Below, piece after piece: positions 1 to 33,845 of a DNA stretch of 64,000 bases (positions within the stretch are counted from its first letter, which is position 1; each line of letters opens with the position of its first letter). The notes beneath the pieces were generated by a model. The model made no database searches and was not told the DNA's origin. It saw only the letters and a program-made list of their open reading frames with translations. Position numbers and translations under genes: made by a program. The DNA comes from Escherichia phage BEU44, in sequence record OM632670.1; one strand, written 5' to 3'.

Positions 1-2526
1 TCAGTCTGTATTCCGTTTAAGAGCAGCTTTTACAAGCAGTTTGATTGCAGGGATTGATTCAGGGAATTGTTCGATTTCACGAAGCAATGTGTCTACAGTA
101 CATGCAGCCAACATATAACCCCCAGCATCAATATCAAGGAACATCTTCGGTATCCTACGAAGTTCCGAGTACTTACTGAAAGTCTTGCAATGCACATCAA
201 CATCACTGAGGAAGTAATACTCTTCTTCAGTAATCAGACCCTTCCCTAACAATGCACGTAGCTTAGGGTAGCTACTACTTTGTAAGAAGAGATAAGCATT
301 CTCCAGTTCTGGGTCATAACGCAGACCTTTCAATGGGGCATATGTAATATCCAGTTCTCTCAGTAATCTGAGGTGTTTGGAGTAAATACCAATATCACTT
401 AACGTTTTCTGACGTTCTTTAGTGACATACTTAATGAATTGTTTGGATGTAAGAACTGAAGCAATATACGGAGCAGTCCATTCATCCAAATGAACAGCAC
501 CTCGCTTAATAGCTTTATTACGTTCAATTTTATTACGACAAACAACAGTCACAGCTTTAATGGTAGCAGGGGTTAATTGCCACATAGAAAGAACACCAAG
601 TCTTCCTGTGTAGTTATTAATATCTTCCTGCATGATGTAATACTGGGGAGTATCTACATCAACCATTCGGTCATGAGAACGAGAAGCGTAGTGAGAACCA
701 CATACTTCACTCGAATAGCTACGATGCTCTTTTGGTATTTCAAGGATATTCATACTAATAAGACGATTAGGACTAACCTTTTTCTTATTAGTAGTCTTCT
801 TAGCTTGTAATTTGGAAATGGCTAATTTAGCCTCTTGTTCCTCTTTACGTCTACGAGCTATACAATCCCACTCATGATATTCAGCCATATTAATGACTTC
901 GTATCCTGCTTTAGTGAGCAGATTAGTCATAGCTTCTGCTTCACCTTTCTTGGTTCCAACTTTGACAATGATTGAGTTATATTTTACCAGTGTCTCAGTA
1001 GAAAGATTATCAAACTCTGGATACCCAGCCAGACTATCTTCAATATTGGTAATACGTGGGGTAACAAATACACGGCACTTCTTAGAACTATAAGTCATGA
1101 AGTTTAATGAGTGTATTCTACGGACACTATTAACAATATTATTACGCCACAGTTCAACACCGTATTGATAATGAAATAGGGAAATACCTTTAGTAATCCC
1201 CAATTTAGCAAAGGTTTTGAACATTGGCTTAATAGCCATATCAGTAAATACTTTAGTTAATTCCCTGTAATTACGTAAATTCTTAGCCCTCTTTAAATGC
1301 TTACGGAGATGGGCTTTTTGAGAACCAGAGAAATGAGCCAGTGCAGGATGTTCAAGTTGACGGTCAATTTCCATATTTCCCCATTTCTTACACAGATGGG
1401 CATATTGCTTACTGAATAAAGTAGAGGACATATAACGACTGACAATAACATCAGGCACTAAATTGGTGTAAGGCAAATAACTATTTACTTCAAAACGGTG
1501 AGGACTATATTCTTTAATAGCCTTCCCAATATATTCAATAGCATTTGGAAGACGAGCTTTAATATCTGCTTCCATATTATCTACTAAAGCTACAGCCAAA
1601 TTTACGATACCGTCTTCGGTCATTTTTTGAGATGACAGTGTTTCACGGCTAGGTGCTACAGCTAGTGATGATGGGGCAGCCTGAACAACGATACGACTAC
1701 AGTTAATAACCTGCATAAACTGTTTAACCAGTTTTAATGCTTCATGTGTAGCAGGAGTATCCAAAGCAGGGTACATAACATTACCATAACGGATAAATAT
1801 TGAATGACTGCCCATGTAATATTTATGCCATGTGTTATGGTCTAGGTTATAGCTACCTGGTTCAAAAGACATACCCAGTACAGGCAATAACTCTACTGTA
1901 TTTGGTCCTGTATACTGATTGCAGTAAATACATTTAATCTCACCATGTAATACAATGGCTCGAATATATGAATCAATTTCTAAAATATCTTCTGACTGAA
2001 GCTGAATTTTAACTTCAAGCCCTGATTCTTCAGTAGGTACGCTAACGATAGGAATAATCCCTGGTTTACCGTTAGTCTCAACAGAAGATTTAGCAATGTG
2101 ATAGACAGTCTTGGTTCCGTCACACATAGATGTGACTGTAAAACTGTCTGTATAGGCCATAGGAGATTTACATCCTAAGCCAAAGCCACCAGTGGAAGCA
2201 GTATTAGCTTTCTTGGTAGATGCACCATATACCCCATAGACCTCTTGAATCTTATCTTTAGGAATACCAGAACCATAGTCACGGAAGATAAGGAAACCAT
2301 CTTTATCAATGGTTACATGGATAGGAATATCTGTTTTATCCCCCTCAATATGAGCATCCCAGCTATTGCACAATGTCTCACGTACCATTGCCAGTTTCTG
2401 ATTAGAATAGAGGTTAGCACTGAGTATTTGGAAGAATGCTGGGTCTTCAGAAATACCGAAGGCCATAGCATCTTGAGCACCCAACGTTGCTGATGTGGTC
2501 AGTTCAGTAGAGTCAGCTACTTGCAT
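1..2526 (-). CDS. rIIA: rIIA-like protein with N-terminal GHKL-type ATPase fold
   Basis: 841-aa ORF, ATG at 2524-2526; N-terminal NSWDAH, RDYGSGIP and TGGFGLG resemble GHKL ATP-binding boxes as in T4 rIIA; position matches N4-like order. Confidence 0.5.
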   Translation of the reverse strand: MQVADSTELTTSATLGAQDAMAFGISEDPAFFQILSANLYSNQKLAMVRETLCNSWDAHIEGDKTDIPIHVTIDKDGFLIFRDYGSGIPKDKIQEVYGVYGASTKKANTASTGGFGLGCKSPMAYTDSFTVTSMCDGTKTVYHIAKSSVETNGKPGIIPIVSVPTEESGLEVKIQLQSEDILEIDSYIRAIVLHGEIKCIYCNQYTGPNTVELLPVLGMSFEPGSYNLDHNTWHKYYMGSHSIFIRYGNVMYPALDTPATHEALKLVKQFMQVINCSRIVVQAAPSSLAVAPSRETLSSQKMTEDGIVNLAVALVDNMEADIKARLPNAIEYIGKAIKEYSPHRFEVNSYLPYTNLVPDVIVSRYMSSTLFSKQYAHLCKKWGNMEIDRQLEHPALAHFSGSQKAHLRKHLKRAKNLRNYRELTKVFTDMAIKPMFKTFAKLGITKGISLFHYQYGVELWRNNIVNSVRRIHSLNFMTYSSKKCRVFVTPRITNIEDSLAGYPEFDNLSTETLVKYNSIIVKVGTKKGEAEAMTNLLTKAGYEVINMAEYHEWDCIARRRKEEQEAKLAISKLQAKKTTNKKKVSPNRLISMNILEIPKEHRSYSSEVCGSHYASRSHDRMVDVDTPQYYIMQEDINNYTGRLGVLSMWQLTPATIKAVTVVCRNKIERNKAIKRGAVHLDEWTAPYIASVLTSKQFIKYVTKERQKTLSDIGIYSKHLRLLRELDITYAPLKGLRYDPELENAYLFLQSSSYPKLRALLGKGLITEEEYYFLSDVDVHCKTFSKYSELRRIPKMFLDIDAGGYMLAACTVDTLLREIEQFPESIPAIKLLVKAALKRNTD

Positions 2527-2858
2527 ACAGTTTCATCAACAGTTTCAGTAGTAGTTTCTACTTCAACTACTTCTTCTTTTTTCTTACCAGTAGCAGAAGC
2601 CAGAGCACTGACAGCAGCAGTATTGGTCTGGGTTACTGGACGATGCTTGCGTTCCTTTGACTCTTTCTTTGGTTCCTCAACCACTTCAACAGATTGGGAA
2701 CCAGCAGGGACAATATCTACGATTGCAGTAGCACCATCATCACCACGAGTAGCTTTGAAGGTTACTTTAATTTCCATACCTTCACGTACAGACATCAGGT
2801 CGTTTACATAACCAGTCAGAGCAGCTTCGATTTCAGGTTGGGTCAGGATTACTTGCAT
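2517..2858 (-). CDS. hypothetical protein (113 aa)
   Basis: ORF between RuvC-like and rIIA-like genes; 10-nt overlap with rIIA start; no recognisable motif. Confidence 0.4.
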   Translation of the reverse strand: MQVILTQPEIEAALTGYVNDLMSVREGMEIKVTFKATRGDDGATAIVDIVPAGSQSVEVVEEPKKESKERKHRPVTQTNTAAVSALASATGKKKEEVVEVETTTETVDETVCK

Positions 2859-2860
2859 TG

Positions 2861-3418
2861 TTATACCTTTGATAAAATTCTCATTAAATTCTGGAAAGCA
2901 GGAGTGAGTACCCCTGCATGGATAGCACCTACAGCATCAGCTAAATGCTCGTTCTTATTGAGTAGCCTACCTTTGGTATCCTTGAGCCAGTTGGCCTCTG
3001 GATAAAATCCTGTAGCTGCTCTAATCATCACATCTTTAGAAGCAGTCTTAATACCGGACAGAGCTACTTTGTTCTCGATGGGAGTAACCTCAATAATCTC
3101 ATGTCCTAGTGCCCTAAGTGCTCCTAAGATGCCTACACAAACACCATAGGATTTCATTCCATTGGCACTTTGTGAACCAACGGGAACCTCTACAAAGATG
3201 ACCTTTGCTTCTTTGAACCAGTCGATGACACCAGCAGTAATATCCTCGGCAGCTTGCATATCTTTGCTGTTTTGCCTTACTTGCTTGGTTCCATCAGGTT
3301 TGGTTTCTACCAGCTTCAGGTTTAATCCAGAGAGTATTCCCGTCTCTAAGTCGAGCATTCCCCGTGCTAGTCCCCAGTTACGAAAACTGGGGTCAACTCC
3401 AAGCACAGGTATCTGCAT
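2861..3418 (-). CDS. putative RuvC-like Holliday junction resolvase
   Basis: 185 aa; N-terminal LGVDPS and later FVEVPVGS resemble RuvC/RNase H-fold acidic motifs; ATG at 3416-3418 abuts SSB stop. Confidence 0.45.
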   Translation of the reverse strand: MQIPVLGVDPSFRNWGLARGMLDLETGILSGLNLKLVETKPDGTKQVRQNSKDMQAAEDITAGVIDWFKEAKVIFVEVPVGSQSANGMKSYGVCVGILGALRALGHEIIEVTPIENKVALSGIKTASKDVMIRAATGFYPEANWLKDTKGRLLNKNEHLADAVGAIHAGVLTPAFQNLMRILSKV

Positions 3419-4215
3419 TATTTCTTACCGAACAGAGATTTTGCAGCAGAAGCACCCGCACCAGTGTTAGTAGCACCTGGTTTTGGTGGCTGACCAGCTT
3501 TACCGGAAGCACCGCCTTTAGTGGTTTTATCACGGGTAACGCCTTTGTTTTTCTCCAGCCATTTGTCCCAGAAGACTGCTTCTTCAACGGTCAGTTCTTT
3601 ACCACGTTCAGTCAGTTCTTCTGCTTCAACAACAGTCAGATGCAGGTCAGGATGGAATACTTTTTCGATGGTATTAGTGAAGCGAGTTTCACCAGTAGAC
3701 ACATAGTTACCGGAGCCATCTTTAGTCTGCTTATCTTCTTCAGATTTCAGAATAGCTACAGCAAACTTACCACCGATAGCATTGACTGGAACCATGACAG
3801 ATTTGGCAACTTCTTTCTTCTCATCGAAGTCATATACGTTAACGACTTTCTCTTCGAAGACTGCTTCAGGAATAGTCTCACCAGAAGTCATTACCAGGAT
3901 GTCATTGATTACAGTGTAGCCCGGCAGGAAGTATTCCTTACCATTCTTTTCATAAGTACACTTGCAGCCTTTTTCAGTACCAGAAGTGATGTACAGTTGC
4001 TCACGGTATTCACCAGCACTGTGTCCATTAAGGTCAGTCAGGTCTGCAATAATCTGAATGAAGTTAGCACCAGAAGCTGCTTTACCTGCATAAGCTACTT
4101 TCAGGTTAGCCAAATAAATATCAGATTCTTTTGCACCAAATCCACCACCCAGGTTATCCGTTGCTTTCTCTGCTTTAGCTGCCTGACCTGCCAGATTTCC
4201 GAATAAATTGCTCAT
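3418..4215 (-). CDS. single-stranded DNA-binding protein (N4 SSB type)
   Basis: 265 aa, ATG at 4213-4215; size and position as I recall for N4 SSB; Gly/Lys-rich flexible C-terminal tail. Confidence 0.55.
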   Translation of the reverse strand: MSNLFGNLAGQAAKAEKATDNLGGGFGAKESDIYLANLKVAYAGKAASGANFIQIIADLTDLNGHSAGEYREQLYITSGTEKGCKCTYEKNGKEYFLPGYTVINDILVMTSGETIPEAVFEEKVVNVYDFDEKKEVAKSVMVPVNAIGGKFAVAILKSEEDKQTKDGSGNYVSTGETRFTNTIEKVFHPDLHLTVVEAEELTERGKELTVEEAVFWDKWLEKNKGVTRDKTTKGGASGKAGQPPKPGATNTGAGASAAKSLFGKK

Positions 4216-4260
4216 TTATATTTCCTACTTAATTAAATTAATGAATGATTAACAACCAGA

Positions 4261-5016
4261 TTAAGCACCGGTAGAGTAATACTCTGCCAGATGGTCGAGA
4301 AGTTTTTGGGCGTCATTGTCCATATAAGTCTCTTGCTTACTGAACATACCCATAGGAGAACGGATACGTTTACCTACTGTTTTCTTAGTAGGTCGAGTCT
4401 GGAATACGTGTTTGTACCCTAACTCTTGTTCATCCTCAGTAATTTCCAACATTCCATTGGAATACTTTTCAAGTTCTTTAAGGTCGATACGTTCTGCTGA
4501 TACAACAGTAGAGAAGTATGCTTCAATACCATTGTTCTTCAGAGAACCTTTTACTGGAACGAAAGTCTTCAGTTCCATTGCACGTTCATCTACTTCGTCT
4601 TTGACGTGAGCAGTGAAAATAACTGGCTTGGCAAATTTAACTACTTTCTCCTGAAGGAGAATTTTGAAGAACTGTGCAAATTCACCCCAAGCCTTCTGAG
4701 TGTTTGCAGCAGTGAGTACATACTGAGTTTCCAGCATATCCATCATGAAAGTCAGGGAATCTACAATGATTCCGTCCACGTCATCACGATGTTCAATGCA
4801 TTGGTCAAAGTATTCCAGAATTTGGTATGGGTCAGTAATACGAACACCATTGAAGTTATTCTTAAATGGCAGACGTTTACCAGCTTCTGTATTCAGATAT
4901 ACCCAACGTTCCTGGTTACGAATGTTACGAAGTGAGGCCGATTTACCAGCAGCAGAAAATCCTACAATCAGGATTAGCTGGTCATTCATTTCGCCATGTT
5001 CAAATTCTTCTGACAT
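4261..5016 (-). CDS. P-loop NTPase, possibly RecA-like (AAA_24/Sak4-like)
   Basis: 251 aa; Walker A GFSAAGKS near N-terminus followed by LNTEAGK. Confidence 0.45.
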   Translation of the reverse strand: MSEEFEHGEMNDQLILIVGFSAAGKSASLRNIRNQERWVYLNTEAGKRLPFKNNFNGVRITDPYQILEYFDQCIEHRDDVDGIIVDSLTFMMDMLETQYVLTAANTQKAWGEFAQFFKILLQEKVVKFAKPVIFTAHVKDEVDERAMELKTFVPVKGSLKNNGIEAYFSTVVSAERIDLKELEKYSNGMLEITEDEQELGYKHVFQTRPTKKTVGKRIRSPMGMFSKQETYMDNDAQKLLDHLAEYYSTGA

Positions 5017-28185: not shown

Positions 28186-28572
28186 CTAGAACGTTCCCCA
28201 GTAGTTGAAATCATCCCCTAAGTAACTTTTCCATGCTAAGTCAAAGGAACAGTTACCAGTGGCATTTTCAAACATAGAGGCCATAACAGAATCATCAATA
28301 CCAGCTAATCCACAACCTACACGAGTAACTTTAAAGTTAAGTTCTGGATGATTAGCAGCATAGACAATGAAGGCTTTTACAAATGTACGAATGTCTTCAA
28401 TAGTCATCGTTTTGATATTGGTATCTTTAGTGGGAATGGCATAGCTGTCACCATAATGACCATGCCCTTTACCCCATCTGGCTCCATGTTTCTTATATGC
28501 TGTCTTTGCAGCACCAGCACCATGTACACCAGCTAGGTTAGAACCAAATACGAATACTTCTTTCATTTGCAT
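28186..28572 (-). CDS. hypothetical protein with Gly-rich motif
   Basis: 128 aa; FGSNLAGVHGAGAAKTA...GKGHGHYGDSYAIPT motif; family not assigned. Confidence 0.4.
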   Translation of the reverse strand: MQMKEVFVFGSNLAGVHGAGAAKTAYKKHGARWGKGHGHYGDSYAIPTKDTNIKTMTIEDIRTFVKAFIVYAANHPELNFKVTRVGCGLAGIDDSVMASMFENATGNCSFDLAWKSYLGDDFNYWGTF

Positions 28573-28763
28573 AATCTCCTTATATATTTGTAAGCCTCAA
28601 GTGGAGCCATACCTAAATTCTCAACAGGTACAATCATTTCTTGAAGTGCATATTCATGGTCACGTTGTTCTTTCTTGGTTCTACAATGACCACACTTACC
28701 ATCCCATTGGGATATATAGCCTTTACCACATTTGCATTGTTTACCCATTAGGATTTTCCACAA
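28563..28763 (-). CDS. small zinc-ribbon-like protein
   Basis: 66 aa; CKCGKG...CGHC four-Cys arrangement. Confidence 0.3.
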   Translation of the reverse strand: MWKILMGKQCKCGKGYISQWDGKCGHCRTKKEQRDHEYALQEMIVPVENLGMAPLEAYKYIRRLCK

Positions 28764-29109
28764 AGTAGTTATACATAGCTTTTACTAACTTCTCTTTAAT
28801 AACCTCGCCATGACAAGGTTTTGGATAACAGAAGCATTGTAAAGCTAATCCTTTTTCATCAATGGCTTTATTACCAAGACGATTTAATTCATCCAGTACA
28901 ACTGGATTACCTTTATCAATCTGTTCTTGTAGCCATACTTTATATTTGGCAATTACTTCTTCTCTGGTTCCATCTTTACCAATAACGAATGGATTACCCA
29001 GAGGAGAACCACGCCCAATATATTCACCCTTTTTACCATGATGTTTATTAACAATGATAATAGGTCTGGCTGACACCCCAAACAGAGCATTAGTGTTATC
29101 ACCTAACAT
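28741..29109 (-). CDS. hypothetical protein, DUF4326-like
   Basis: 122 aa; IGRGSPLGNPF motif recalled for DUF4326. Confidence 0.3.
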   Translation of the reverse strand: MLGDNTNALFGVSARPIIIVNKHHGKKGEYIGRGSPLGNPFVIGKDGTREEVIAKYKVWLQEQIDKGNPVVLDELNRLGNKAIDEKGLALQCFCYPKPCHGEVIKEKLVKAMYNYFVENPNG

Positions 29110-29111
29110 AG

Positions 29112-29432
29112 TTAACTCCTTGATTTAACTACCTGAAATGCATATACAGGTCTTCTGGATTTCCATTGACTCATAGCCAATTCACTTGGTTCTGAGCCAT
29201 CATGTAAGTCATAAATAAATGAAATTACATAATCAGGTTCTTCAGGGAAATTATCTGTAGAGAAGGGTAAACTGGCTTCTTTCAGAATGGGAACTAGTGG
29301 TGAATTAGCATCACAATATAGAGTAAATTCTTCTTTAAATGCTGGAGTTGTCTGAGCTACATAATCAATATTACGCATCATTTTATCAACATCATTAAAA
29401 TCAGCATCATGAACAATTAATATTGTTTTCAT
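29112..29432 (-). CDS. hypothetical protein (106 aa)
   Basis: ATG at 29430-29432 overlapping upstream stop by 1 nt. Confidence 0.3.
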   Translation of the reverse strand: MKTILIVHDADFNDVDKMMRNIDYVAQTTPAFKEEFTLYCDANSPLVPILKEASLPFSTDNFPEEPDYVISFIYDLHDGSEPSELAMSQWKSRRPVYAFQVVKSRS

Positions 29433-29608
29433 TATTTCACCGTAATACTTTCCAGATATTCTTCAAAATCTTTCTTAGACTGATAAAGTCGAATACGAGC
29501 TTTATTCTGGTCAGGGAAAGTTTTTGCTTCATTAAATGCCTTCATAGCACTAAGGCAGTTGAAGGCTAACTGTTTAATAGCCATAGCCTGGGATTCACTG
29601 ATTCCCAT
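29432..29608 (-). CDS. small protein (58 aa), not in ORF track
   Basis: Hand translation MGISESQAMAIKQLAFNCLSAMKAFNEAKTFPDQNKARIRLYQSKKDFEEYLESITVK; ATG 29606-29608 preceded by GGAGG; TAATG overlap with next gene. Confidence 0.4.
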   Translation of the reverse strand: MGISESQAMAIKQLAFNCLSAMKAFNEAKTFPDQNKARIRLYQSKKDFEEYLESITVK

Positions 29609-29930
29609 TAAGAGCCTCCATAATAATCTTACGGATTACATTCACTTCCAGTTCATTACCAATGAGGCCAACTGGTTTGTCAGTAGCATCCATAATGAAT
29701 TTAGCAATTCGTTCCATTTCAGCCGTAATGAGCTTGTCACCGCTTACCAAACGGTTACGAAGATATGCCTCATAAGCTGCTGCTATATCTTCATCCGTGG
29801 TTCTCTCATTTTTCTGGAATGGATTGCTCAAAGGCATTGGATAATGAATACGAATATTCCTGTCAGCAATACGAGCTTTATGCTGTGGGATAGCAATGAT
29901 TTGGTTCATAGAAGTCCTTCTAACATACAT
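29595..29930 (-). CDS. hypothetical protein (111 aa)
   Basis: ORF in early-gene cluster; contains LSNPF. Confidence 0.3.
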   Translation of the reverse strand: MYVRRTSMNQIIAIPQHKARIADRNIRIHYPMPLSNPFQKNERTTDEDIAAAYEAYLRNRLVSGDKLITAEMERIAKFIMDATDKPVGLIGNELEVNVIRKIIMEALNGNQ

Positions 29931-30121
29931 GCTTTCATAATTGCATCACGAAGCAATCCTGCACATGCAGGAGTCTTTCCTGTAGCAATATGAGTTACGT
30001 AATAGGTCTTGGATTTCTCTCCACGATGTAATTCATAGATTGGCTTGCCATAAACGAGAAATAACCAAGAACCTCTTACTTGATTGCGTTTAATCTTATA
30101 ACCGTAGTTTAACTGTTCCAT
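29906..30121 (-). CDS. hypothetical protein (71 aa)
   Basis: ORF in early-gene cluster. Confidence 0.3.
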   Translation of the reverse strand: MEQLNYGYKIKRNQVRGSWLFLVYGKPIYELHRGEKSKTYYVTHIATGKTPACAGLLRDAIMKACMLEGLL

Positions 30122-30157
30122 TATTCCTTCCTCTAAGATAGTTGCTTAATAACCACG

Positions 30158-30190
30158 ATAAAAATAAGAAGAGGGCTTAGTAGCCCCCTC
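30158..30190 (-). terminator. putative intrinsic terminator
   Basis: GC-rich stem gaggg/ccctc (30171-30175, 30186-30190) preceded on plus by ataaaaataagaa = U-rich on minus transcript; just after stop at 30195. Confidence 0.4.
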
Positions 30191-30194
30191 CTAT

Positions 30195-30404
30195 TTATGC
30201 TCGTTGTCTTAATGGGTGTAATGCTTGCATCTTACTGACTGCTTCTCTAAGCACTACTGCATCACGATGAATTATTGCTTGTGGGTTATTGGCATAACCA
30301 TTACGGCAGTCTTCTTCAATAATATTAGTTATCTCTGCTAACAATGCATAATCACCATATACACGGAGAAGACGTTCTAAGTCTTTCTTATCCTTAGTTT
30401 GCAT
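30195..30404 (-). CDS. hypothetical protein (69 aa)
   Basis: ATG at 30402-30404. Confidence 0.3.
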   Translation of the reverse strand: MQTKDKKDLERLLRVYGDYALLAEITNIIEEDCRNGYANNPQAIIHRDAVVLREAVSKMQALHPLRQRA

Positions 30405-30562
30405 TACATACCCTTAATAGCTGGATGGTTGAAAGTAACAATACGACGTACTGGTTCAGACGTACTATAACGTTCTGCAAACGTTACTGCTTTATTCATC
30501 TGACGTTTAGCTTTCATCTTAGCAACGTCTTCTTTGGTTCCCATGATTAGTGATTTACGCAT
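30404..30562 (-). CDS. small basic protein (52 aa), not in ORF track
   Basis: Hand translation MRKSLIMGTKEDVAKMKAKRQMNKAVTFAERYSTSEPVRRIVTFNHPAIKGM; ATG 30560-30562 with AAGGA SD; TAATG overlap with next gene. Confidence 0.35.
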   Translation of the reverse strand: MRKSLIMGTKEDVAKMKAKRQMNKAVTFAERYSTSEPVRRIVTFNHPAIKGM

Positions 30563-30572
30563 TACCTTATCC

Positions 30573-30770
30573 TTATTTAATTACAGTAACTAATTTAATC
30601 TTCTTACGTTGGTTCAATTTCTTGGTTAACTTAATAGCTTTATCTTTCTCAAATTCTTTAAAGCTAGTTAATGTTTTCCATTTGAACCATTTAAAGCCTT
30701 GCACTTTATAGCTAATGATTTCATTACCCCTGGTATCAAGAGCATTAACCATTACTGTTCTGAATTTCAT
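30573..30770 (-). CDS. hypothetical protein (65 aa)
   Basis: ORF in early-gene cluster. Confidence 0.3.
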   Translation of the reverse strand: MKFRTVMVNALDTRGNEIISYKVQGFKWFKWKTLTSFKEFEKDKAIKLTKKLNQRKKIKLVTVIK

Positions 30771-31182
30771 TGTTAAACCCTAATTTTGGTATCAGGTTAA
30801 TTAACTGGTCTGCCATGCTTTCACATTCATTGATGCAGTATTCTTCATCTCGCCATACTCCATAAGAATCCTCATAGAGTTTCTCCCTAAGAGAGCCGAT
30901 GAATTGTTTAGGACATTTCAGTTTATCCCCTGCATGAGCACAGTCATAACCTATGACTTTAATCCCATCAGCCCACTGAGGGACACCTTGATAGGTAACT
31001 CCACCATGTACTGCAATATGAAGTGTTTCTTCATCATCACAGATATAGTCATAGAAGTTTTTATCCAGTAATGCTTCTGGTATTTCTACGTAACCACAAT
31101 GATGACTACCACCATTTACCAGCAATACCCATGCCTTCAGCCCAGCCTTAGAAGTCCAATGTTTTACGATTTCATATGACAT
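30745..31182 (-). CDS. hypothetical protein (145 aa), His/Cys-rich
   Basis: HHCGYV, HGGVTY and GYDCAHAGD suggest metal binding; family not assigned. Confidence 0.35.
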   Translation of the reverse strand: MSYEIVKHWTSKAGLKAWVLLVNGGSHHCGYVEIPEALLDKNFYDYICDDEETLHIAVHGGVTYQGVPQWADGIKVIGYDCAHAGDKLKCPKQFIGSLREKLYEDSYGVWRDEEYCINECESMADQLINLIPKLGFNNEIQNSNG

Positions 31183-31185
31183 AAT

Positions 31186-31542
31186 TTACTTACTCTCCAA
31201 CTGACTCTTAATCCAATTAATTCGACTTTGGTTCAGATGACATCTTCCATCAGAACACTCCATCATGTAGTCGAGAACATCTACATTGAATGGTAGATTT
31301 GTATCATTATCAGGAAGTAAATGAGTAAAGCTCTTACACAGAGCATCTACTGTTTCTTCACTGATTGGCTGTCTTCTAAGATACTTGCCTAGTTGAACAC
31401 ACAGTCCACTACCCCTATCAAACAGGTAATGAGGTTCACTGGCTCCATTATCTAACCACTCCTGATAGTCCATCAGGAATCGTTTTATAAGAGGATGCAT
31501 CTGTATACTCCTTCTTCTAAAACATCTGCTCAAACTATCCAT
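31186..31542 (-). CDS. hypothetical protein (118 aa)
   Basis: ORF in early-gene cluster. Confidence 0.35.
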   Translation of the reverse strand: MDSLSRCFRRRSIQMHPLIKRFLMDYQEWLDNGASEPHYLFDRGSGLCVQLGKYLRRQPISEETVDALCKSFTHLLPDNDTNLPFNVDVLDYMMECSDGRCHLNQSRINWIKSQLESK

Positions 31543-31603
31543 TACTTTTTAGTATCCCTTCGTCGAAAAGGGTCAAAATCTCTACTTTAGTATTTAGATA
31601 GTT

Positions 31604-31635
31604 AAAATTAAAAAGGACTACCCGAAGGTAGTCCT
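31604..31635 (-). terminator. intrinsic terminator
   Basis: 9-bp stem aggactacc/ggtagtcct (31614-31622, 31627-31635), CGAA loop, preceded on plus by aaaattaaaa; 8 nt after stop at 31643. Confidence 0.6.
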
Positions 31636-31642
31636 ATAGAGA

Positions 31643-32029
31643 TTAGAAAGTCAGTTTACGAGCATATTTATTCTCACTTGCTGAGATAGCAGGAGCTTCT
31701 TCTTTAACTCGACGAAGTTGAACTTGCAGTGAGATAACTCCTTCCTGACCTGGTTCCAGAGTCTTAGCAAATTCCATCAGTTGGTCTAACAAATCGTTCT
31801 GTGCACAACGCATTGCACGGAAGTCTTCGTTAGAGGAATTGGTTGGCAGATGCTCCTGAGTATCCAGTGGAATACCAGTAGGCAGAGAGATGAAACGTTC
31901 ATCTTCAGTGCCTTCATTAGCTACATAGCCAACGTTAATCCAGAACTGAGCTTTCGGGCGAGAACCATTGTTGGATTCAGTTTTAGTAGAAGCCTGACCA
32001 AAGGTTTTAGCAAAAGTAGTGATAGCCAT
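31643..32029 (-). CDS. early protein (128 aa), second gene from inferred left end
   Basis: ATG at 32027-32029 with GGAGAG SD; longest ORF starts TTG at 32140 inside the promoter hairpin. Confidence 0.45.
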
Positions 32030-32136
32030 TTTGTACTCTCCAGATAGTTGATTTTGATTAGTTGAGACTACTTTGTCGGTAAGTAATCCCAGACAAAAGG
32101 TTAAGATTTCATACAGGATTGGATGCATTACTTCAT

Positions 32137-32157
32137 CCAAAAGAAGCGGAGCTTCTT
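32137..32157 (-). promoter_or_regulatory. hairpin promoter of N4 virion-RNAP type (P2-like)
   Basis: catccaaaagaagcggagcttctt: 7-bp stem aagaagc/gcttctt (32141-32147, 32151-32157), loop gga; matches the N4 P2 promoter sequence as I recall it; predicted +1 near 32138 for leftward transcription. Confidence 0.65.
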
Positions 32158-32197
32158 ATCTTTAAAGTAGATAGTTATTGAACTATCGGTTCTATGT

Positions 32198-32221
32198 AAA
32201 AGGAGACTCCGAGGAGCCTCC
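32198..32221 (-). terminator. putative intrinsic terminator
   Basis: Minus transcript ggaggcuccucggagucucc followed by uuuu (plus A-run 32198-32201); lies between gene ending 32234 and promoter at 32137. Confidence 0.45.
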
Positions 32222-32233
32222 ATTTGTTTGTTA

Positions 32234-32560
32234 TTATTTAGAGTCTGCTAAGATTTTGCTAAGACGGTCATAGGCATTAGAGAACAATTCTTTGTTTTGT
32301 TCATCTTTGCAGAAGTCTAAGATTTGTTTCTGACGAATAGCTTCTTGCATTGCAGTTTCTTCAATAAGTTTATTGGTAAACTCATGCATTTCTAATTTGT
32401 CACGAATGATTTGTTTATCTGCTTGTTTAGTTACATAACGATTAAGCATACCTACTGCTTTAGTAGCAGTACCGAATGTATCAGCTACAGTAGTTGCTGC
32501 TTCATTAACAGTACCCAACAGAGTTCCTACAGTCATACGAACGTTAGCCTGAGTAGTCAT
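32234..32560 (-). CDS. early protein (108 aa), first gene from inferred left end
   Basis: ATG at 32558-32560 with GGAGG SD; longest ORF starts TTG at 32623 inside the promoter hairpin. Confidence 0.45.
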   Translation of the reverse strand: MTTQANVRMTVGTLLGTVNEAATTVADTFGTATKAVGMLNRYVTKQADKQIIRDKLEMHEFTNKLIEETAMQEAIRQKQILDFCKDEQNKELFSNAYDRLSKILADSK

Positions 32561-32605
32561 AGTATTAGCCTCCAATAGTTGATTGATAAGATACGGACAA
32601 CATGT

Positions 32606-32624
32606 CCATAAGTTGCGAAGCAAC
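32606..32624 (-). promoter_or_regulatory. hairpin promoter of N4 virion-RNAP type (P1-like)
   Basis: ccataag + stem gttgc/gcaac (32612-32616, 32620-32624) with loop gaa; same spacing and CCA..AAG element as the other two; 47 nt upstream of ATG at 32560. Confidence 0.55.
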
Positions 32625-32673
32625 GTGTAACGTGTACAAGGTGGGGTAGGCTAAGGCTACACTAGTAAAGACC

Positions 32674-32681
32674 GGGGGGGG
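32674..32681. repeat. G8 homopolymer tract in ORF-free G-rich region
   Basis: accgggggggg at 32671-32681 within otherwise AT-rich genome; near acgtgta and aggcta tandem duplications. Confidence 0.5.
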
Positions 32682-32927
32682 TGCTTATGGTGTAAGGGGT
32701 GTAGCCCCACCAAATACTAAACTCACAAGTAACTATGACTATTTTCACTAAGAAAAAAATTATAGGGTATCTATCTAATAGACTTCCTATTTATCTCTTA
32801 TAAATACTAACAACTTCATACAACTTACCTTCTATAAGAATAGGATGACCTACTTCTATGAAGGCCAGGCTATCTATCATCACTGGTTCGGATAAACCTT
32901 TAACTGTTATATACCACATAGCTTTCC

Positions 32928-33293
32928 TTATTTATAAGCAGATAACTTTGAAGTCTCTCTGAAGTAGAAAGTAACTGCATGATTAAAGTGATTCTGTTCT
33001 ACCACTGGTTCAAAGCCTTTTGGTGCCAGGAAGTAAATGACTTCGTTATTCCATGCATTAGTAGGTATTGCCACTTTCTTCCTTGGTTCAAGAAGAATGG
33101 TACTAATGTCTTTACCTTCTAAGAACCAGTTACCTAGTAGAGCATGGGTATCATCCGATTCAGGTAAGTAAAGAGGTTTGGTATTACCACACATAGCATG
33201 GAATAGATTGGTGGAACCACAGTGAAATAGAGCAGGTTTGTTTGTAGTGTACTCTAGGTTGATACCATAGACTTCATTAGGACGAATGTTCAT
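32928..33293 (-). CDS. hypothetical protein (121 aa)
   Basis: ATG at 33291-33293. Confidence 0.35.
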   Translation of the reverse strand: MNIRPNEVYGINLEYTTNKPALFHCGSTNLFHAMCGNTKPLYLPESDDTHALLGNWFLEGKDISTILLEPRKKVAIPTNAWNNEVIYFLAPKGFEPVVEQNHFNHAVTFYFRETSKLSAYK

Positions 33294-33312
33294 ATAGAAC
33301 TCCTTGGTTCAT

Positions 33313-33340
33313 AAAAGAAAAAGGGAGCCAAATGGCTCCC
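33313..33340 (-). terminator. intrinsic terminator
   Basis: 7-bp stem gggagcc/ggctccc (33323-33329, 33334-33340), loop aaat, preceded on plus by aaaagaaaaa = U-run on minus transcript. Confidence 0.55.
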
Positions 33341-33503
33341 AATTCCTATACCGAGTGTGTTTGTTAAATCAGTTCTCTCTGATACTACTCATCACCCAAT
33401 GGCAGATAACAAAGGTGTCTTGGAGATAGGTGAATGTAGCTGAAGTGGTTATTCAAACAGTTCCCTGTTTCCCGCCACCAACTCCTGGGCGGGCAATGGC
33501 TTA

Positions 33504-33845
33504 TCAAGCAACCACGGTCATCTCGATGGCGTCACGCTGTCGTTTGATAGAGATACTTTGAGGTATTCTTGTAAAGAATGCAAGACCCTCGATAGGCTTG
33601 GTAATGACACGTACTGGTGCAGGTTTATGGACAGTAAACCCAGTGACGTTATTGATTAACATCATACCTGAGATGTAATGGAAAGACTCCTCATCGTGAC
33701 ATAAGATATGGTCACCTGGTATAGCCCCTCCAACTGGGATAGCTCCACCTATTTTACTGAAGTCTATCTCATTCCATTGGTCATTACCGTCAAAACTATA
33801 GAATAGCCTCATGTTACTGGTTCCTTTGGGCAATAGGCTCCCCAT
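33504..33845 (-). CDS. hypothetical protein (113 aa)
   Basis: ATG at 33843-33845; divergent from late operon. Confidence 0.35.
   Translation of the reverse strand: MGSLLPKGTSNMRLFYSFDGNDQWNEIDFSKIGGAIPVGGAIPGDHILCHDEESFHYISGMMLINNVTGFTVHKPAPVRVITKPIEGLAFFTRIPQSISIKRQRDAIEMTVVA

Follow-up and report, generated by a model that had tools for sequence, protein, structure and literature searches.

Hairpin promoters and intrinsic-type terminators in the early region of an N4-like Escherichia phage

The stretch of DNA analysed here, called the window, comprises 64,000 nucleotides of Escherichia phage BEU44 (sequence record OM632670.1; one strand, 5' to 3') and contains an early region in which DNA hairpin promoters for the virion RNA polymerase (vRNAP) are interspersed with hairpins followed by U-runs, the structure of intrinsic terminators. 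By Megablast, window positions 28000-33600 are 100% identical to Escherichia phages BEU5, BEU13 and BEU14, and positions 1-4714 of coliphage N4 (EF056009) match the opposite strand of the window at 98.3% identity. When both ends of the N4 record were compared with the window by BLAST, N4 position 1 fell on 32712 and N4 position 70153 on 32713. Judged by these alignments, the window is a reverse-complemented and circularly permuted copy of an N4-type genome, and for most of the region an N4 coordinate x converts to window position 32714 - x. The beginning of the early region and its genes, including those of the N4 RNA polymerase II (RNAPII), lie as follows:

32712-32713, no strand: junction of the N4 record ends, located by BLAST; the early region of the virion DNA begins here.
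32234-32560, minus strand: gp1, early gene and proposed cofactor of middle transcription (N4 annotation 154-480, BLAST and open reading frame list).
31643-32128, minus strand: gp2, single-stranded DNA (ssDNA)-binding cofactor that recruits RNAPII (100% identical to N4 gp2 by tblastn; function from PMC4496689).
30195-31500, minus strand: gp3-gp7 (N4 map).
28186-30121, minus strand: gp8-gp14 (N4 map).
27302-28111, minus strand: gp15, RNAPII (N4 map).
26040-27254, minus strand: gp16, second RNAPII subunit gene (N4 map).

Hairpin promoters were sought with a strict motif derived from the contacts described in PMC4496689, namely a stem of at least 5 bp, the arrangement GC-GRA-GC and a template C at +1, 11 nt from the loop centre. 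Three were recognised:

32612-32624, plus strand: P1, vRNAP hairpin promoter GTTGC-GAA-GCAAC; predicted start 32607, leftward; loop centre 96 in N4.
32141-32157, plus strand: P2, vRNAP hairpin promoter AAGAAGC-GGA-GCUUCUU; predicted start 32138; loop centre 565 in N4.
28152-28168, plus strand: P3, vRNAP hairpin promoter AAGCTGC-GGA-GCAGCTT; predicted start 28149; precedes gp15 and gp16 (RNAPII); loop centre 4554 in N4.

These are the only matches to the motif, all on the plus (template) strand with loop positions 28159, 32148 and 32617, where a simulation expects 0.01. Each is an inverted repeat with a 3-nt loop (stems of 5, 7 and 7 bp and loops GAA, GGA and GGA for P1, P2 and P3, respectively), and the energies of the DNA folds are -3.7 kcal/mol for P1, -5.3 kcal/mol for P2 (z -2.8) and -6.7 kcal/mol for P3 (z -3.5). 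The purine at -11, the G at -10, the G at -8 and the C at +1 can be read from the sequence at all three. In N4, P1-P3 have been mapped in vivo as well as in vitro within the genome's leftmost 10%, with contacts at -11A/G, -10G, -8G and +1C (PMC4496689). The hairpins of the window likewise occupy the leftmost part of N4, on the strand that is the template for the direction of gp1-gp16, and by their sequence they are N4 P1, P2 and P3. Initiation dependent on supercoiling and on single-stranded DNA-binding protein (SSB) was shown experimentally at the N4 promoters (PMC4496689), and near-identity to N4 suggests the same dependence for those of the window. An earlier note, made from the sequence alone, had counted three vRNAP promoters within an early region set at 28186-33340; exactly three exist, although P3 lies 18 bases outside that range. 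The strict motif scan found no canonical hairpin promoter between 28169 and 32140.

Four hairpins followed by U-runs lie on the leftward transcript behind gp1, gp2, gp7 and gp16. Their fold z-scores were obtained by RNA folding against dinucleotide shuffles:

32198-32221, minus strand: t1, after gp1; GGAGGCUC-CUCG-GAGUCUCC followed by UUUU; -15.1 kcal/mol, z -3.75; starts 12 nt past the gp1 stop.
31604-31635, minus strand: t2, after gp2; AGGACUACC-UUCG-GGUAGUCCU followed by UUUUUAAUUUU; -15.2 kcal/mol, z -4.38; starts 8 nt past the stop.
30158-30192, minus strand: t3, after gp7; 11-pair stem followed by UAUUUUUAUC; -18.5 kcal/mol, z -3.51; starts 2 nt past the stop.
25999-26034, minus strand: t4, after gp16; AAGGCUAUCCC-UUCG-GGGGUAGCCUU followed by UAUUUUUUUA; -18.9 kcal/mol, z -4.48; starts 6 nt past the stop.

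A consensus scan of the minus strand placed the hairpins and their U-runs at 32221-32202 with UUUU, 31635-31614 with UUUUUAAUUUU, 30192-30167 with UAUUUUUAUC and 33340-33323 with UUUUUCUUUU, the last being a right-end site, tR, that is treated below. These are the four GC stems with U-runs that had been reported on the leftward transcript; all are present, within 2 bases of the coordinates first given, and exceed chance expectation. The four early sites and tR all consist of a stable GC-rich stem-loop and a U-rich run, as intrinsic terminators do, and t1-t4 share the orientation of the genes upstream of them and begin 2-12 nt past the stop codons, at the 3' ends of the units. The identification of the elements as vRNAP hairpin promoters and intrinsic-type leftward terminators is supported. 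The U-run of t1 ends at 32198 and the P2 hairpin begins at 32157, a gap of about 40 nt, in accordance with the claim that a terminator at 32198 sits about 40 bp upstream of a promoter at 32137; gp8 starts 37 nt beyond t3. The early region extends beyond 28186, where it was first supposed to end: P3, gp15 and gp16 continue it to t4, a terminator that the earlier note does not list and whose hairpin at 26009-26034 marks the true end of the region.

Hairpins with U-runs might be functionless inverted repeats that arose by chance in AT-rich intergenic DNA, and a loose consensus scan is noisy, with 8.1 chance matches expected in 14 kb. Against such an origin, the whole window yielded 18 sites under strict criteria (stem of at least 7 pairs with at least 4 GC pairs, loop of 3-6, at least 5 U in 8) compared with 2.3 ± 1.4 in shuffles, and the sites all point in the direction of the genes and lie just past stop codons. 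A minus-strand cluster at 23593-33340 holds 8 of the 18, the left genome end being dense in terminators. Position is also conserved. Thirteen early regions of Schitoviridae from at least five genera were compared (N4, PhAPEC7, Moo19, KP8, EC1-UPM, Axy13, Kuerle, Pollock, Pylas, UTK0002, Arace01 and two IMG/VR contigs); a gp15 search of IMG/VR gave three loci only, and further relatives were taken from a phage collection. In 12 of the 13 loci the scan found a hairpin with a U-run 5-22 nt past the gp2 stop, and in the thirteenth, Kuerle, RNAfold gave one of -21 kcal/mol that the scan had missed because its stem runs into the U-run. Given the background density of matches, the binomial tail for this positioning is about 1e-19. 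The stems themselves vary from genus to genus: when ten were aligned on their loops, 93% of cells were paired and 7 of 9 pairs had changed on both sides, and none of 500 shuffles reached the covariation score, a test that is partly circular because the hairpins had been chosen by a hairpin scan, so that positional conservation alone is independent evidence. With the position kept across subfamilies though the stems differ, the idea of chance repeats is refuted as far as sequence can refute it, and we give it practically no credence.

The other sites are conserved to varying extents. A terminator lies 2-7 nt past the RNAP2 stop in six genomes (N4, PhAPEC7, Moo19, EC1-UPM, Axy13 and Arace01), again with differing stems, and counterparts of t3 were found in PhAPEC7, Moo19, EC1-UPM and KP8. 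Counterparts of t1 were detected by the scan only in Moo19 and in the IMG/VR locus L007, and the Pollock record annotates a terminator just past gp1. The PhAPEC7 record carries annotated ARNold terminators at the positions of t2, t4 and tR, namely behind the gp2-like gene, RNAP2 and gp70. In the 11 loci in which the gp2 start could be placed, a hairpin promoter, sometimes two, closely precedes the gp2 homologue, and a counterpart of P3 precedes the RNAPII genes in PhAPEC7, Moo19, EC1-UPM and KP8. As judged from these scans, the cassette of promoter, gp2 and terminator is conserved across the sampled Schitoviridae, which fits the demand for an abundant ssDNA-binding cofactor.

A pair of hairpin promoters precedes the gp2 homologue in Pollock (1507/1559), Pylas (2559/2612), UTK0002 (2977/3029) and KP8 (970/1233). 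Such pairs, whose members are about 52 nt apart in the Humphriesvirinae, parallel the tandem early promoters reported before drc in the N4-like phage LUZ7.

Stable hairpins behind genes could also arise if long early RNAs were trimmed by 3' exonucleases back to tetraloop hairpins that protect the 3' ends, with no true termination. The extra-stable C(UUCG)G tetraloop occurs in 8 of the 10 aligned post-gp2 hairpins as well as in t2 and t4 of the window, and a termination site and a processing stop look alike in sequence alone, a caveat that the authors of the LUZ7 study voice too (PMC9163698). A U-rich run follows the stem directly in 13 of 13 genomes, however, and such a run is needed for intrinsic termination and not for an exonuclease block. 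We therefore hold trimming as the origin of these hairpins to be improbable.

The arrangement is best read as the early control region of an N4 relative in which, we think it likely, vRNAP starts at three hairpin promoters and the terminators stop part of the polymerases, giving rise to nested RNAs. The elements exist, occur far above chance, match those of N4 and are conserved in position. The injected T7-like vRNAP would initiate at the three DNA hairpins extruded on the plus (template) strand and transcribe leftward, and intrinsic class I-type signals after gp1 (t1), gp2 (t2), gp7 (t3) and gp16 (t4) would halt a share of the polymerases. From P1 to t1 and from P2 to t2, abundant RNAs of about 410 nt (gp1) and about 530 nt (gp2) would thereby arise, and from P3 to t4 a gp15-gp16 RNA of about 2.1 kb, while gp3-gp7 and gp8-gp14 would be carried on scarcer read-through RNAs. 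The output would be graded: large amounts of the stoichiometric cofactors gp1 and gp2, and less from the genes downstream. A high output of gp2 is sensible because gp2 is the ssDNA-binding protein that recruits RNAPII. By stopping P1 transcripts about 40 bp short of P2, t1 would also shield the supercoil-dependent hairpin of P2; insulation of this kind is plausible because the P2 hairpin has to be extruded by supercoiling and kept open by SSB.

Between t2 and P3 there is no canonical hairpin promoter, and the twelve genes gp3-gp14 consequently need either read-through of t2 and t3 or a second type of promoter; if the terminators were fully efficient, vRNAP could not reach these genes. Nested transcripts with common 5' ends, the longer the scarcer, are the best reading, and both a single long RNA and purely discrete short RNAs are unlikely. 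The suggestion of the earlier note that the early RNAs are short and discrete can accordingly be kept for gp1 and gp2, whose units are bounded on both sides, but not for gp3-gp14, which have no hairpin promoter of their own. Experience with LUZ7 is consistent with nested RNAs: ONT-cappable-seq assigned 90% of its early transcripts to the gp01 and Drc RNAs, and sequential read-through of weak terminators was common and yielded longer variants (PMC9163698).

The terminators might act on N4 RNAPII or on the host RNA polymerase and be ignored by vRNAP, in which case the early RNA would be long and continuous and the hairpins would shape middle or late RNAs. T7-type RNA polymerases stop with partial efficiency at a hairpin followed by U residues. 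For vRNAP, the termination properties of the complete enzyme are reported to persist in its catalytic domain (PMC4496689), the early pool of LUZ7 consists largely of short gp01 and Drc RNAs, and promoter, gp2 and terminator are conserved as a unit, all of which argues against a polymerase indifferent to these signals. In favour of it, middle transcripts form an overlapping series of RNAs over the left half of the genome (PMC4496689), and some LUZ7 terminators change in efficiency between stages of infection (PMC9163698). On balance, we judge it improbable that vRNAP passes these sites unhindered, to about the same degree as exonuclease trimming, and prefer partial termination by vRNAP.

Some points weigh against partial termination and nested RNAs all the same. 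Which polymerase stops at the hairpins, how efficiently it does so and the insulating role are inferred, and a literature search found no RNA-seq or RNA 3'-end map for N4 itself. The covariation test of the post-gp2 hairpins is partly circular, as noted above. t1 may be weak, because its U-run is just four residues long and because PhAPEC7, EC1-UPM and KP8 lack a terminator at the corresponding position. Finally, the 8-mer AACTATCT could serve as a second promoter type for gp3-gp14 and so lessen the need for read-through.

The exact 8-mer occurs in six copies in the window, all on the minus (transcribed) strand:

32169-32176, minus strand: exact copy of AACTATCT.
31596-31603, minus strand: exact copy.
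30136-30143, minus strand: exact copy.
32042-32049, minus strand: exact copy.
25814-25821, minus strand: exact copy.
20990-20997, minus strand: exact copy.

Three of the copies lie 20-30 nt past t1, t2 and t3, and the 7-mer AACTATC is found 11 times on the minus strand as against twice on the plus strand. In sequence the 8-mer is similar to ACTATA, the core of T7-group promoters. The RNAPII of N4 is a T7-like enzyme, and its minimal promoter extends from -7 to +2 (PMC4496689). Each early terminator might then be one half of a switch module, with AACTATCT as an RNAPII core promoter right behind it, although we regard this as doubtful. If it were true, vRNAP would make only the short gp1, gp2 and gp15-16 RNAs, and RNAPII would switch on the genes past each terminator. 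On a second reading, the pairs of terminator and promoter might serve as relay points for a stepwise entry of the DNA, since transcription by vRNAP helps to pull the genome into the cell.

The copy past t1 belongs to a perfect inverted repeat, GATAGTT-CAAT-AACTATC. Behind the gp2 terminator of the Enquatrovirinae, the Rothmandenesvirinae and one Pseudomonas phage stands a block of related sequence, AACTnnnC(T/G)A(A/T)A... In the same groups the leader between t2 and gp3 (31501-31603, minus strand, about 100 nt) shares the conserved blocks AACTnnnCTAAATACTA, ACTTTTGA, CTTTTCGACGAAG and AGCAGATAACTTAGA, with gp2 proteins that are just 40-75% identical; RNAalifold predicted no consensus RNA structure for this leader. 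The block past the gp2 terminator was considered as a repeated promoter and rejected: CKAWAWRCTA occurs once in the window, and AACTATCTA with one mismatch occurs 21 times against 26 expected. Only the exact 8-mer AACTATCT and its placement are notable.

The promoter hairpins have a further property. As minus-strand RNA, those of P2 and P3 form 7-bp stems that are followed by UUUUGG, and in PhAPEC7 and EC1-UPM the hairpin of P3 is picked up by the loose terminator scan. Between gp14 and P3 no separate terminator was found. In Pylas, the annotated terminator at 2545-2577 overlaps a hairpin promoter motif with its loop centre at 2559, as found in our own scan. That promoter hairpins double as terminators is speculation, the U-run being short and derived from the promoter consensus itself.

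The fourth terminator of the earlier note does not belong to the early region. It lies beyond the genome end at 32712/32713 and follows the right-end gene gp70, as its equivalent does in PhAPEC7. The features of this end are:

33504-33845 (about), minus strand: gp70, right end (N4 map).
33313-33340, minus strand: tR; GGGAGCC-AUUU-GGCUCCC followed by UUUUUCUUUU; -19.4 kcal/mol, z -4.31; about 165 nt past gp70 and 20 nt before gp71.
32928-33293, minus strand: gp71, right end (N4 map).
32791-32919, minus strand: gp72, right end (N4 map).

tR is found 628 nt past N4 position 1 and matches the right end of N4 at about 69526-69553, between gp70 and gp71; the strict motif scan of the window found no hairpin promoter pointing towards it. 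PhAPEC7, which belongs to a different genus, is annotated likewise: gp70 is followed, after about 150 nt of spacer, by a terminator and then by further rightward genes. As far as the alignments tell, tR is a real terminator that belongs to a transcription unit of its own, on the other physical end of the genome, and it is the circular permutation of the assembly that brought this terminator of the gp70 unit among the early ones. Only 20 nt, holding a ribosome-binding site, separate tR from gp71, and gp71 and gp72 would therefore be reached by read-through of tR.

The spacer between gp70 and tR (33341-33506, minus strand, about 165 nt) is partly GC-rich and has a whole-spacer fold z of -2.4. 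Directly after the gp70 stop it carries a hairpin CCCGCC...GGCGGG, the equivalent of which in PhAPEC7 is ACCGCC...GGCGGT. The spacer may be a structured 3' untranslated region or a small RNA.

Around the junction, a small hairpin GGGG-CTACA-CCCC is located at the extreme left terminus of N4 (within window 32625-32790), and a run of eight G lies near 32674-32683. A length difference of 1 base to N4 exists somewhere upstream of gp1. The terminal repeat, 390-440 bp long in N4 (PMC3715699), is present as a single copy in the N4 record, in which BLAST gave no match between left and right ends. Rfam at gathering thresholds and a tRNA scan gave no matches in the whole window. gp8 matches the Pfam family of the N4 inhibitor of host replication.

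For many distant homologues of gp2 the alignment starts only at residue 34, and a short form is annotated in some records. A ribosome-binding site, GGAGAG, itself preceded by a copy of AACTATCT, serves an internal ATG at 32029. As the general start of gp2 this ATG was ruled out, for with KP8, Moo19 and Axy13 the alignment begins at residues 1-2. These three phages conserve the N-terminal 33 residues, so that the long form is probably genuine in this group.

Much of what is described here is essentially already known. N4 is the model system for hairpin promoters, and the mapping of its three goes back decades; N4 maps show early terminators, terminators are predicted routinely in N4-like genomes, and those at the positions of t2, t4 and tR are already annotated in PhAPEC7. 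The value of the analysis lies in corrections and context, namely the permuted assembly, the extension of the early region to 26009, the need of gp3-gp14 for read-through or another promoter, and the conserved gp2 cassette.

Compared with known systems, the window comes closest to N4 itself. The stems and loops of P1-P3 are identical to those of N4, and the differences are confined to single flanking bases at P2 and P3, so that nothing substantive sets the promoters apart; the window represents a strain 98% identical to N4, in a permuted and reversed assembly. The terminators resemble those of T7-like RNA polymerases (class I) and bacterial intrinsic terminators in their GC-rich stems of 7-11 pairs, the tetraloop, the U-run directly 3' of the stem, the intergenic position and the orientation with the genes. 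They differ in that the template of vRNAP is supercoiled and coated with SSB, and termination efficiencies known from T7 are therefore not transferable; which polymerase stops here we infer. The terminators annotated in other Schitoviridae (PhAPEC7, Pollock and Pylas) are likewise predictions. LUZ7 shares with the window hairpin early promoters, very abundant short RNAs for its first gene, gp01, and for the ssDNA-binding RNAPII cofactor Drc, which corresponds to gp2 in function, and read-through variants of these (in the window, the short and read-through RNAs are those predicted above). It differs in having nine early start sites, including the tandem pair before drc, compared with three in N4, and in that Drc is not homologous to gp2.

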